Shown piece after piece: positions 15,037 through 64,000 of a DNA stretch of 64,000 nt. Source of the DNA: Octopus sinensis (taxonomy: Eukaryota); contig NC_042999.1 in the NCBI RefSeq assembly GCF_006345805.1, positions 26,412,001-26,476,000 of the forward strand, read 5' to 3'. Under the pieces are notes generated by a model. The model was not told where the DNA came from, ran no database searches, and was given only the letters and a program-made list of their open reading frames with translations. The position numbers were made by a program, and so were the translations under genes. Each line of letters opens with the position of its first letter. Position 1 is the first letter of the stretch.

Positions 15037-15140
15037 GTATCCGATGTGACCCAGACTGATCTGATCGATGCAACAAAATTGGATGCGCAACATCTCGCCA
15101 TAAAGGAGAGTCGCAGGAAAAGTCGAAACGATCGTCATAC
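15037..15140 (+). ncRNA. Degenerate type-I hammerhead-like motif
   Basis: gtat-CCGATGT-gac...gtc-GAAAC-GATC-GTC-atac: stem I, stem II base and palindromic stem III are intact; two core substitutions. Confidence 0.5.
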
Positions 15141-15361
15141 TGAATAAAGACCACGGCCAAAGCTAGGTCTCTGTTTCCTTCATCAATTATTATTAGCTCA
15201 ACTAACACAGCAGAATCCTAAAAGCAGATCCAGCGGAAATATACCCTAACCGTGGATGACACCAGGTAACCCAAACGGTGAACGGGCTGTACTCAACACA
15301 TTAACATATACACACACATACACACACACACATATATATATATATATATATATATACATAT

Positions 15362-15501
15362 ATACGACGGGCTTCTTTCAGTTTCCGTCTACCAAATCCA
15401 CTCACAAGTCTTTGGTCGGCCCGAGGCTATAGTAGAAGACACTGACCCGGAACCATGTGGTTTGTAAGAAAGCTACTTACCACACAGCCACTCCTACGCC
15501 T
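15362..15501 (-). mobile_element. SINE family 1, 5' half with internal deletion
   Basis: Matches 14612-14778. Confidence 0.85.
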
Positions 15502-60189: not shown

Positions 60190-60530
60190 GATGTCAAAAA
60201 TTTCGTTTCTAAAATCGTCCCAAAGGATTTCTCTTTTCCCGCAGAGTTTCTTTCTTCTCGATTGGAGGCCCTATCTGTTGATCATGAGGCATGGAGATCC
60301 GTTTGTGATGGTGGAGTACAGGTATCTGAAACCGAACGTAGGCGATGACAAAAAGAGTGTCGGTATCCAGTGTCTATTGCTTGTGGTCTCCTTCAGTGTC
60401 CTCAGGAACACATGATCTGCCGCTCTCGAATCGGTCTTGTCGGCCATATCCAACCGCTTCGATGTGCAGGAGGCGGAGGAGGATGAGTATCTTCGATCCA
60501 CACTGTTGATACGCCGTCATAAGCGAGTAA
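60190..60530 (+). mobile_element. RTE-clade LINE 3' end with terminal zinc-finger-like motif
   Basis: LEALSVDHEAWRSVCDGGVQVSETERR and CPQEHMICRSRIGLVGH resemble the RTE C-terminus. Confidence 0.7.
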
Positions 60531-62896
60531 GCAATATCTACACACACACATACACACATACGCTCACACAAACACACACACAAACACACACACACATACA
60601 CACTCATACGCTCACACAAACACTCACACAAACACACACACAAACACATGCACAGACAGATGCACACATATAAAAATATATGTATGTATATAAACACGCA
60701 CGCACACACACACACTTACACATATCAAATATATGTTCAGACATATATCAATGTAAATATATATACATAGGAAATCGTAAAGATACACAGATTTTTTATG
60801 GAGAATAGGTTGCTGAGGAGAAAATCAGAAACTCCTGTGTAAAGCCTTTTCTTGAAACCACTTGCTTGAATGATACGAAGAGACTTTGGCATATTATGTG
60901 CTTTATCTTGCTTTACAGAACTCATATTGTATCAAAAATCTACAAATGATTAACATTAATTAATTACCATACTCATTTTCTGAATTATATAGAGTAAAAG
61001 TAAGTGTTTTCTGTGTTGAAAATGATTTCATATATTTGCATAAGTTACTTAAATCGGTTACTATAACAGAGCGGTTTGTATATTATCGACTCGGGAACCA
61101 AAAGGTAAAAAGATGTCTACATAAGCGTAGATAGTTTTCATCTCGCATATACGAGCACAGCAGTAGTTTAACAGCATTGTCTGAGGCCTATATTGATTAC
61201 ACAATTTATAGCCTGATTGTGTAAATTTCTCAAATATACTCAATGACAGTAAGATAAATACCTACAGCACGTACATTCATATGAAAATATAGCGTCTAAT
61301 GTTCTTTTTTCAGCAGCTCACTATCCACATATACTGATTTCTACATCATGAGTGTATTATTGCTATGTATTGACTGCATTGTTTATGAAGTGGGCCTTTT
61401 CACCAGTTATTGATCTGTAGTGTATTTATCGATATTTATTGCAGAATTGTTTTTCTTCATGTTGTTTTAATCATTTTACTAGCCATTTACTATAGATCGT
61501 TAGTTGTTTCATTATCTTTTTACCTCTCTGCTCTTTTGCCTGTTTAACATAATGGCTGTAATTTCAATGAATTTTCCTGCTGTTCTAAATCGTCGATCAA
61601 TGTTTGTATATTGTGTCCGTTAAAGCTGAATTTTTAGGTTGACATTCAATAACTTTGAATGTTCCAAACACTTTCATTAATGTTTCATAGAAAAAAAAGA
61701 CCAATAAATAAAGAGAAGGAGGGAAAAATACAACAAAATGTATTTGTAATGGGATTATTATTTGCTGACTAAGGATTTTTCCCATCACTAAATTATATTC
61801 TTCTACAATATTTTTTTTCCTGGCACTATAGTTGGTCAAACCTGCTCTTCTGTGAAACACCATAATTTGTTCTTTCACACGCAATGAAGTCGGTTGATAT
61901 TGAAGCAAGTAAACTAACCTCTTCATTTGGCAAATATTTGTTCTGAAATTCGAAATAAAGGGCTTTGTAAGCGATCTACCTTATTATTTCTTTAAAAGAA
62001 GAATTAAAATAAATCTTAAACATAAAATTTAGGCGTGAACTATAATTAAATAATATATCACTGTCGCATGATTGTGTCAATTTTTAAATCAATGCTCGGT
62101 TGCCGGTTTTATAGCGGTTCAAGGCATCGATAACGCATTAGAATTTCATGATGAATACACGTAGGTGCTTCGACACACACACATACACTCACACACATAC
62201 ACGCATGGATATGCGTATGAAAGTATGCCCGCATCTATGTATGTGTTAGTTAAAAAGTAAAAAGTGGTGAATTTCCGTTTAATCGTTTGCCTTCAAACTA
62301 TTTTCCCATTTAAAAACTCAATACATTGTAAATGCTTTAAAATAACGCCTGATAAAATAACATCAACCAATTTAAATAAAATGAAATACCAAACACAAAG
62401 GTACTCTAGGTTATGTATTTATAATGAATAAATTAGATATAAGGATTAAATTTAACTACTGCAGTTTATAAAACTTTATAGAAAAATATGTTTTTAAAAA
62501 TTTATATCCAATCCTTTTTATGTTAAAAATTCAAATATTTGTAATAACATAAAAAATAACAATTAGAATACTCTAACAATATTTATCAGTAAAGCAGCTT
62601 ATCTAATATACAACCTATGTAATATATAACGTATAATCCTAGCTTTATATACTTATGGATATACATACCTGAGTGTGTGTGGCTGTGTGTGAGTATATGA
62701 ATGATCATATATGTCTATAAGTTCTGAAGATCGTGTAAAATAACGGTATATGATTTAGGAAAATTGGAGTATTTACAGTGTCTCTGTTTGAAATTTCGAT
62801 ATTACTACGTTTAGCGAGGTATATTTATAAGTGTGTCTGTGTGTGTATTTGTATGTGTATATTGTGCATATATATATATATATATATATATATATA

Positions 62897-64000
62897 CATT
62901 ATATAAAAGGGCTTAGTAAAATAAATTACCTTGCCACATACTGAACTCATTAGAAATAGTAGCTAAAAAAAAACTTTTTTAAAACTATTTCTAATACTTA
63001 AAGAAAATCTCTCTCATATAGTGTTTGCTCAATTCAACTCACGAAAGTATGGGGGTAAAGACATTAAAAAATCAAATGCAAAGGTTATTTGAGAACGTAC
63101 GTTTCAAGATTAGTCAACTCGACATTTCTATCATCAGCTCAGAACTCCTTGGTTTGGATTTGAAAACACTGAAAGTGGGAGCATACCCTTTCGGCTTCTT
63201 ATCGCTTCTGAAGATCTGCTCGAAACTAACAGTGCCAGCAAACCCAAAATATGCAAGCGAAGAATTTCTGCTCACCCCTTTCCACCAGCGTGGGTTAAAA
63301 TCAGTAAACACTATGCTTTTTCGGTAAAATCCGAAGAATTAAATAGAGAGAGATGAATTATAATTTCAACAATTGAGGGTAAAATTAATTAATTATTAAT
63401 CAATTTCACCAAGTATTCAGTATGTAAAGGGACCATTTAAGGCGAATTCAAATTATTGCATTATATAAAAGGGCTTAGTAAAATAAATTACTTTGCCACA
63501 TACTGAACTCATTAGAAACAAATAACCTTTGCATTTGATTTTTTAATGTCTTTACCCCCATACTTTCGTGAGTTGAATTGAGCAAACACTATATGAGAGA
63601 GATTTTCTTTAAGTATTAGAAATAGATTAAAAAAAGTTTTTTTTTAGCTACTATTTCTAATGAGTTCAGTATGTGGCAAAGTAATTTATTTTACTAAGCC
63701 CTTTTAAATAATGTATAATTTGAATTCGCCTTAAATGGTCCTTTACATACTGAAACTTGGTGAAATTGATTAATAATTAATTAATTTTTACCTCAATTGA
63801 AATTATAATTCATCTCTCTATTTAATGCTTCGGATTTTACCGAAAAAGCAATAGTGTTTACTGATTTTAACCCACGTTGGTGGAAAGGGTAGAGCAGAAA
63901 AATTCTCGCTTGCATATTTTGGGTTTGCTGGCAATGTTAGTTTCGCGCAGATCTTCAGAAGCGATAAGAAGCCGAAAGGGTATGCTCCCATTTCAGTGTT
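62897..64000. mobile_element. Head-to-head pair of a ~560-bp non-coding hammerhead-bearing unit (Penelope pLTR or retrozyme-like); continues beyond the window
   Basis: 62898-62957 is repeated at 63459-63518; 63519-64000 is the reverse complement of a circular permutation of the unit. Confidence 0.88.
63090..63141 (-). ncRNA. Type-I hammerhead ribozyme motif, canonical core
   Basis: tgag-CTGATGA-taga..gtc-gagtt-gac..tctt-GAAAC-GTAC-GTT-ctca. Confidence 0.72.

Follow-up and report, generated by a model that had tools for sequence, protein, structure and literature searches.

The question raised by this locus is what the hammerhead-like ribozyme motifs scattered along it represent, and what machinery has carried them there. 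The locus is a stretch of 64,000 nucleotides of Octopus sinensis DNA (GCF_006345805.1, contig NC_042999.1, positions 26,412,001 to 26,476,000), referred to here as the window and in whose coordinates all positions are given. A sequence-only reading had proposed that it contains about 14 minimal hammerhead-like motifs from at least eight non-coding repeat families, mobilised in trans by the proteins of Penelope-like elements (PLEs). The minimal hammerhead of PLEs is characterized by the core CUGANGA, one extra nucleotide, a G-C closing pair, GAAA and a palindromic stem III, with a U3:A8 variant, and thousands of such hammerheads lie scattered as single motifs (Cervera & de la Pena 2014; PMC4209133). 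The motifs of the window are probably minimal type-I hammerheads located in the 3’ ends (pseudo-long terminal repeats, pseudo-LTRs) of at least 11 families of Penelope-like retroelements and of their gene-less derivatives, most of them decayed, short, 5’-truncated and often inverted insertions.

Recognition of the motifs depends on the model employed. A strict hammerhead descriptor without the extra nucleotide after A9 returned no motif in the whole window in any of six settings, and is the wrong model for these motifs, while a search of the whole window against Rfam gave 143 matches (E value of 5 or less) that included no hammerhead. Revised descriptors, which allow the published extra nucleotide and any Watson-Crick 3:8 pair, were run in six settings and gave 3, 5, 7, 3, 4, and 3 matches versus means of 0.02, 0.22, 0.42, 0.2, 0.88, and 1.08 in 40 shuffles, respectively; the counts of the last three settings were reached by 1, 1, and 5 of the 40 shuffles. 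A descriptor drawn from the literature only had one match (two with one deviation), or three (four) with G3:C8 permitted, and none of 300 shuffles reached these counts. A log-odds scan was built after the motifs had been seen and was controlled with 138 local dinucleotide shuffles. It returned 16 matches at 14 bits or more versus 0.56 in the shuffles, 7 at 20 bits or more versus 0.02 expected, and, at a loose threshold of 6 bits or more, 49 versus 32. Whole-window decoys had 0 (reversed), 0 (A/T-swapped) and 3 (G/C-swapped) matches at 14 bits or more, the G/C swap being one that retains real stems. The comparison with shuffled sequence, which the sequence-only reading had named as a check, came out in favour of an excess of motifs. 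Four scan matches were discounted as chance occurrences: one at 6993 within a mariner remnant, one at 58593 within a widespread interspersed repeat, and those at 52544 and 59357.

The positions proposed by the sequence-only reading proved to be the low ends of real motifs, 11 of the 14 scoring at least 14 bits; the weakest of these are 15037 and 22761, with 0.3–0.4 expected by chance per window. The motif at 53841 gives a poor parse (3.0 bits), yet alignment places it in family F as a decayed homologue. The two members of family D, 23216 (6.8 bits) and 25506 (-0.5 bits), have lost the core, with C at G5 in both together with other core changes. The stems of both remain recognisable (stem I, a long stem II and a stem III that is nearly palindromic), as does GAAA. 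The 14 motifs fall into nine families, in agreement with the minimum of eight: A (15037), B (17865 and 35041), C (22761), D (23216 and 25506), E (28022), F (29915, 42107, 43202 and 53841), G (30609), H (51158), and I (63090). Five further motifs had been missed, namely three of family J (39898-, 40274- and 41538+), one of family K (39515+) and the second arm of A (core at 14185-). The density is about one motif per 3–4 kb. Several of the “copies” in A, D, J, and F at 53.7 kb are the two arms of one insertion, and so are not independent. The families are non-coding as far as tested, in that the Pfam matches of 143 frames of at least 70 amino acids included no PLE reverse transcriptase (RT) or GIY-YIG domain.

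Conservation of the individual elements is uneven. When a fully intact motif is defined by the core with its 3:8 pair, the extra nucleotide, the G-C closing pair and the palindrome, 17865, 35041 and, marginally, 43202 qualify. The core itself (CUGANGA or a compensated 3:8 pair, with GAAA) is intact in both copies of B, in C, in F copies 2, 3, and 4 and in I (7 of 14), as well as in the third J motif and K; it is broken in A, both arms of D, F copy 1, G, and H, and the family majority restores it in E. The unpaired nucleotide after A9 and the G10.1-C11.1 pair are present in B, E, F, G, and H, and absent or ambiguous in A, I, and J. The stem III palindrome is perfect in the first arm of A and in B, C, F, G, H, I, and J, and is restored in E by the family majority. 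Fold z-scores of single motifs are mostly weak (-2.5 to +1.1 over 15 regions). The copies with core mutations had been considered likely dead; most are indeed decayed, but some carry compensatory variants, i.e., G3:C8 in B and U3:A8 in F.

Family E is the one in which a ribozyme motif is joined to a recognizable promoter. In the window copy, a 14-bp target-site duplication, identified by a flank repeat search on the plus strand (left, 27765–27778; right, 28118–28131; a match length also seen in 15 of 1,500 random flank pairs), encloses an inverted, 5’-truncated copy of the tail (27779–27872, minus strand; 83% match) starting about 10 nt after the predicted cut site, a tRNA-like head (27874–27940, plus strand) with RNA polymerase III (Pol III) A and B boxes at 27881–27935, a short AAT run, the hammerhead (28022–28065, plus strand; 24.6 bits; N17 at 28061), and a 55-nt tail. 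The unit is about 245 nt in length and contains no open reading frame (ORF). The head was not called as a tRNA by ARAGORN or Rfam, and Rfam did not report a hammerhead in E either. At 19198–19332, the E tail is present as a hairpin of two inverted arms with no hammerhead, bounded by a 9-nt flanking repeat and centred 5–6 nt after the predicted cut site. This hairpin is inserted into an ISXO2/Merlin-like transposase remnant (18089–19716) that lies between inverted 162-nt arms.

Contigs of four sequencing runs, which carry three organism labels and include three DNA runs, one of them possibly the source sample, were aligned to positions 27640–28300 at 80% likeness. The E copy of the window is defective at three positions: U4 is replaced by A (28027), the stem III palindrome is interrupted (28058), and stem I contains a mismatch (28063). 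The majority letter repairs all three in each of the four runs (U4, 97–99% of depth; stem III, a CpG site, 71–83%; stem I, 98–99.5%). Members of the family mostly carry a perfect motif, and conservation of stems and core at the family level, also named in advance as a check, was found for E. Sites between 27985 and 28120 that vary in at least 12% are CpG positions, two more private changes of the window copy, and N7, the only position of the core that is free and the sole non-CpG core site that varies (A in 8–17%; C in 13.5% under one species label). The B box is canonical in 99% of the family depth, with the majority letter at 27931 supplying it. The depth of the E core is about 66,000–125,000 times that of unique flank, with 15,613–19,831 contigs aligned per DNA run; summed contig depth is not copy number and is inflated by overlapping contigs, so that E is claimed only at thousands to tens of thousands of copies or more. 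Contig 5’ ends pile at 27872–27874, often behind an inverted head, and 3’ ends pile at 28114–28119, while tail-to-head tandem joints were found at other loci in the contigs of two runs. The contigs of run X23, which may be an RNA run, cover E without its flanks, and contigs do not show expression level. The Pol III head, lack of an ORF, target duplication and high copy number support an assignment of E as a tRNA-derived, non-autonomous element resembling a short interspersed nuclear element (SINE). Patterns for E and B had no match in viral and prokaryote contigs.

Family B has, apart from its G3:C8 pair, the best-formed motif of the window. Copy 1 (17865–17915, minus strand; 33.7 bits) is intact, with a 7-bp stem I, a 5-bp stem II, a 6-nt palindrome, and U17 at 17872; as a monomer it folds stems I and II (z -2.5). 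Copy 2 (35041–35091, plus strand; 32.9 bits) is likewise intact with the G3:C8 core. Of 50 columns in the ribozyme, one differs between the copies, against 13 of 78 in the tail (Fisher p 0.009, from a single test made post hoc). There are only these two, 17 kb apart and facing outward, and they could descend from a single ancient event. Directly upstream of copy 2 is a short microsatellite-tailed element (34859–35042) flanked by an 11–12-nt direct repeat; 42 nt of this element recur unchanged at the 3’ end of arm 2 of family D (25616–25657). No RNA run was listed as covering 15950–18240, the region around copy 1. An 18-mer of family B matched metagenome contigs 31 times, and all 31 matches were attributed to chance; none continued into stem II or matched the window.

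The tertiary 3:8 pair differs among families: it is C:G in C, E, G, H, I, and K, U:A in F (three of four copies) and J, and G:C in both copies of B. Hammerheads with U3:A8 occur naturally (PMC3088659; PMC4209133), and an engineered C3G/G8C change partly rescues a PLE hammerhead in vitro (PMC11167929). No G3:C8 occurs among the 56 representative motifs of Fig. S3 in PMC4209133, and literature searches for a natural G3:C8 gave engineered mutants only, though Lunse et al. 2017 and Arkhipova et al. 2017 (Terminons) could describe it or long-stem variants. Judged from the sequence, the G3:C8 of B appears to be compensatory and natural in both copies. As regards covariation of the stems, there are few copies per family in the window, the E contigs are conserved without double changes, and the 3:8 pair is the only one that covaries, between families.

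Family I lies at the border of the window and comprises one 562-nt non-coding unit with a 60-nt terminal redundancy (62897–63518, minus strand; self-alignment). Its hammerhead (63090–63141, minus strand; log-odds scan) has an intact core, U.U at 10.1/11.1, and N17 at 63094. The sequence upstream of the hammerhead runs round to the 3’ end of I itself with a period of 562 nt and no ORF, and the ORF-less unit supports a non-autonomous status, which would make I the second such family. An inverted arm (63519–64000, plus strand; 94–98% identical by alignment) begins 3 nt after the predicted cut and runs off the window. Two or more consecutive tandem units, each with a complete hammerhead, were not found in the window, past the end of which family I extends. 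Family H (51156–51215, plus strand; 23.3 bits) has a U4G change, mismatched stems and a 6-nt palindrome. Its 3’ end matches that of I weakly (71% over 102 nt, E value 5e-4; 50999–51400 and 62871–62968); this shared 3’ end, together with an AT-rich internal palindrome, suggests a common PLE partner.

The remaining families are known from more damaged or single insertions. In family A, the motif (15037–15140, plus strand; 14.9 bits, 0.37 expected per window) has a 4-bp stem I, a decayed core, a stem II insert of about 70 nt, and an 8-nt palindromic stem III; its decayed second arm (14097–14189, minus strand) is a 73% inverted match to 15067–15190, and the 894-nt gap between them holds a SINE. 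The single copy of family C (22763–22874, plus strand; 15.2 bits) has an intact CUGAUGA core, a stem II insert of about 80 nt, an 8-nt palindrome, and a weak stem I. Arm 1 of family D (23215–23292, minus strand; 6.8 bits) and arm 2 (25506–25581, plus strand; by alignment to arm 1) retain the stems and a near-palindrome around a broken core, with C at position 5 in arm 1, and are 84% identical over about 750 nt. The roughly 750 nt of sequence upstream in D are non-coding, and the upstream part of family K is also long and non-coding. The K motif (39509–39596, plus strand; 16.5 bits) has a 6-bp stem I, an intact core, a long stem II, and G at position 17, against the consensus N17 = H, and sits at the outer end of an inverted complex at 37143–39495. 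Long stem II inserts of 35–80 nt are features of A, C, D, and K.

Family F has a U3:A8 core. Copy 1 (29915–29951, minus strand; scan and alignment) carries C3 and an altered GAAA, and adjoins an inverted truncated arm at 29955–30048. Stem II is damaged in copy 2 (42110–42146, minus strand; 17.4 bits) and of 3 bp in copy 3 (43204–43240, minus strand; 18.0 bits). Around these two copies, at 42082–42330 and 43176–43400, the upstream sequences are near-identical, while 5–6 differences lie inside the 20-nt stem II, with damage at different places. In copy 4 (53841–53880, plus strand; alignment to the family) stem I is broken, and the copy is head-to-head with a truncated minus-strand arm at 53705–53830. 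Family G (30609–30644, minus strand; 26.2 bits) is intact save for U at position 6. Family J includes a copy with A6C at 39864–39901 (minus strand; 17.0 bits), which is duplicated at 40240–40277, and a copy at 41535–41572 (plus strand; 23.6 bits) that has a U3:A8 core, no extra nucleotide and a weak 3-bp stem I, and is the inverted partner of 40240–40277. The segment 39832–40470 is a 375-nt direct duplication, 99% identical, which takes in microsatellites along with the J motif and is either a recent tandem duplication or an assembly artefact.

The way in which the motifs are inserted bears on the machinery. Their place is close to the outer 3’ end of a short repeat, in many cases one of two arms inverted head-to-head (A, D, J, E at two loci, F at two loci, and I). 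Partial tandems, an adjacent inverted 5’-truncated copy, and a one-sided tail are the signature of PLE insertion (PMC8557442). In the window, I is a partial tandem with an inversion, F has one arm with and one without a 3’ extension, and A, D, E, and J are inverted. A flank search found no target duplication of 8 nt or more for A, D, B copy 1, K, J, or F copy 3. The start of four arms lies no more than about 10 nt past the predicted cut (I, +3; the E hairpin, +5/6; E, +10; F, about +5), a hint that would fit cleaved templates. By contrast, five (both copies of B, F copies 1 and 4, and A) start upstream of stem I, the minus arm of I starts mid-unit, and among the E contig rows listed there is no pile of ends at the cut site and the depth upstream of the cut equals that downstream. 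The proposal that 5’ junctions pile at the cut site was accordingly demoted to a hint, and the five upstream starts and the lack of a step or pile in the E contigs indicate that most insertions would derive from uncut RNA, as in the anole system.

Taken as a mechanism, a PLE RT/GIY-YIG protein encoded elsewhere would bind the 3’ part of the RNA, nick AT-rich DNA, and reverse-transcribe the RNA in trans, giving truncated and inverted insertions. Fold predictions show no stable stem III in the ribozyme monomers, and the motifs should, on these models, cut only as dimers and slowly. Cleavage may then take place when two copies pair via the palindromic stem III in tandem or multimeric transcripts, perhaps aided by the PLE protein, and would trim precursor RNA, most insertions still deriving from RNA that was not cut. 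Selection in the source elements may maintain the ribozyme, and the 3:8 tertiary pair would be preserved while its letters change (C:G, U:A, or G:C), as a working hammerhead fold needs. In O. vulgaris, 30 recently active Penelope families have been described (PMC13282606).

Several observations weigh against this interpretation. Neither the Pfam scan of the 143 frames of at least 70 amino acids nor a motif search upstream of 18 motifs found a PLE RT or GIY-YIG domain. Only 3 of 14 copies are intact, A9 is missing in both arms of A, and the core is absent in both arms of D. The log-odds score was tuned after the motifs had been seen, and its G/C-swapped decoy still yields three matches. For B, the active dimer is modelled at -25.4 kcal/mol, 2 kcal/mol above two monomers (2 x -13.8) and also above the co-fold minimum (-30.6), and eight of nine predicted Xenopus retrozyme dimers did not cleave (bioRxiv 10.64898/2026.07.22.740005). 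Family-wide data are available for E only, and the depth of the E head is about one third of that of the hammerhead, implying that many copies of E lack a head or have an end in common with another element.

Chance resemblance in hairpin-rich, AT-rich repeat DNA is very improbable: the three positions at which the window copy of E is defective are exactly those repaired in independent contigs, and the seven matches at 20 bits or more face an expectation of 0.02. In its favour, the surplus at 6 bits is small, the motifs 15037, 22761, and K are marginal when taken singly, neither D nor 53841 can be parsed, and Rfam is silent. This explanation is refuted for B, E, G, and I and may still hold for A, C, D, J, and K taken individually. 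A second account, in which all motifs are 3’ pseudo-LTR stubs of ordinary autonomous PLEs, with no separate non-autonomous families and with the tRNA head at E an unrelated SINE, is unlikely as a whole. The E duplication encloses inverted tail, head, and body as one event, the head-to-tail joints of E recur in two runs, I wraps round to its own 3’ end, and D has its long non-coding upstream sequence. On the other hand, published minimal hammerheads are mostly single motifs of truncated PLEs (PMC4209133), O. vulgaris has 30 recently active Penelope families, about two thirds of the E depth lacks the head, and B, C, G, F, and H are too short in the window to discriminate. For families other than E and I the stub account may well be right. 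The claim of distinct non-autonomous families mobilised by PLEs divides along the same line: the PLE type is borne out by motif anatomy, by the repair of E, and by inverted and partial-tandem insertions, and non-autonomy by E and I, but A, B, C, F, G, and H could be 5’-truncated ends of autonomous PLEs.

It is also possible, if on balance doubtful, that the ribozymes are passengers inherited with the PLE end that the RT recognises, cleavage having no role in their spread. Hammerhead-dead mutants of the anole PLE insert normally in vitro and RNA-seq reads ending at the cut site were not found (PMC11167929), Naiad PLEs spread without canonical hammerheads (PMC8557442), the E contigs listed show neither a pile of ends nor a change of depth at the cut, and a broken core is common to both arms of D. 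What is difficult to reconcile with mere passengers is that whole families (B and F) carry compensatory 3:8 swaps, that E varies in its core at N7 only, and that the B ribozyme is better conserved than the B tail; the swaps and the restricted variation of E indicate selection on the catalytic fold. The interpretation favoured here, PLE-type minimal hammerheads in PLEs and their gene-less derivatives, can be extended, tentatively, to a radiation of non-autonomous PLE parasites in the octopus genome. One of these would be a tRNA-headed SINE moved by PLE rather than by long interspersed nuclear element (LINE) machinery, with a dimer-type hammerhead in 10^4–10^5 copies across several species, while in other families each of the three workable 3:8 pairs, a natural G3:C8 among them, would have become fixed, as would long stem II inserts.

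By its testable sequence features the system belongs to the PLE minimal hammerheads, with no autonomous PLE seen in the window. Like the minimal hammerheads of metazoan PLEs (PMC4209133), the motifs have a CUGANGA or U3:A8 core, an extra nucleotide before stem II, G10.1-C11.1, a palindromic stem III, and a short stem I, and like that set they form many heterogeneous families, mostly of single motifs with some opposite-strand pairs 100–700 bp apart. They depart from it in that the extra nucleotide is G in B and F (H in the published consensus), in the 35–80-nt stem II inserts, and in lineage, since its listing includes no cephalopod. The E depth ratio exceeds the largest per-genome count given there (about 9,000), the two measures not being comparable. 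Non-autonomous PLE derivatives have been published as retrozymes derived from PLE pseudo-LTRs (Li et al., bioRxiv 10.64898/2026.07.22.740005), and short non-autonomous Penelope elements are mentioned from butterflies (PMC6685494). Non-LTR retrozymes (PMC7229834; bioRxiv 10.64898/2026.07.22.740005) are likewise units of a few hundred nt that lack an ORF, each with a single type-I hammerhead, kinship with PLE pseudo-LTRs, and dispersed monomers, a description that the 562-nt unit of I fits. Their definition, however, requires circular RNAs and arrays in which two or more complete hammerheads follow in tandem, whereas the present insertions are of 1.1 units or inverted.

The closest parallel to E is provided by the Schistosoma hammerhead SINEs Sm-alpha and Sj-alpha (PMC6765202), in which a Pol III promoter also precedes the hammerhead and which are also non-autonomous, repetitive, and found as tandem copies. 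Unlike Sm-alpha, whose hammerhead is canonical (PMC4209133), E has a minimal, dimer-type hammerhead, a PLE-type tail, and PLE-type inverted insertions. The Anolis Poseidon PLE PAc (Frangieh et al. 2024; PMC11167929) shares the minimal hammerhead in a pseudo-LTR, AT-rich targets, and a tail; it is autonomous, and the G3:C8 pair that was an engineered rescue there is the natural state of both B copies here. Literature searches for hammerheads in octopus and for PLE-dependent SINEs gave no such report. The basic phenomenon is already published, and what appears to be new is the lineage, the density, the tRNA-headed minimal-hammerhead SINE with PLE-type insertions, and, less securely, the long stem II inserts and the natural G3:C8 core.

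PLE hammerheads are conserved and yet dispensable in the sole in vitro system. One motif per 3–4 kb, together with a family at tens of thousands of copies, would provide unusual statistical power to measure selection at each ribozyme position and to map junctions relative to the cut site. A natural G3:C8 family, if true, would complete the covariation seen in nature at the catalytic 3:8 pair, and would show that whole families escape Rfam and the standard CUGANGA descriptors. Similarly, a PLE-mobilised tRNA SINE, if true, would extend the usual SINE-LINE partnership. The curated repeat annotation of O. vulgaris from 2026 (PMC13282606) includes 893 unclassified recently active SINE families, with no mention of ribozymes in its main text, and the hammerhead motif could help to classify them.

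The window as a whole is AT-rich, microsatellite-rich animal DNA (33.6% GC; 117 tandem-repeat rows), and one unique stretch of it is common to sequencing runs under five organism labels. Among the 143 frames scanned with Pfam there was no recognisable host exon, and the transposon remnants comprised LINEs, mariner/Tc1, an ISXO2-like transposase, and a PIF1 helicase. Three regions (20783–21393, 30857–31814, and 37143–39495) form large inverted repeats or palindromes that are close to perfect, with arms of 250–700 nt that are 75–98% alike; no hammerhead was detected inside them, and they may represent foldback elements or hairpin insertions of PLEs. A common tRNA-headed SINE without a hammerhead is present in about eight copies (14335–14782, 21406–22120, 24495–24892, 28815–29218, 30338–30509, 51984–52393, and 57100–57481), including a 99% inverted duplication at 21406–21880. 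Remnants of mariner, a Helitron-type PIF1 helicase, and a Tc1 transposase are found at 6243–7085, 43649–45600, and 49600–50680 (Pfam), respectively. A minisatellite with a 36-nt unit occupies 11048–11795 in about 20 copies. LINE 3’ remnants lie at 685–2922, 8771–9709, 12637–13600, 48848–49240, and 53012–53560, two of them with a zf-RVT match; the frame at 8771 has 90% identity to an unnamed database protein, and one LINE fragment has protein matches from marine invertebrates only.

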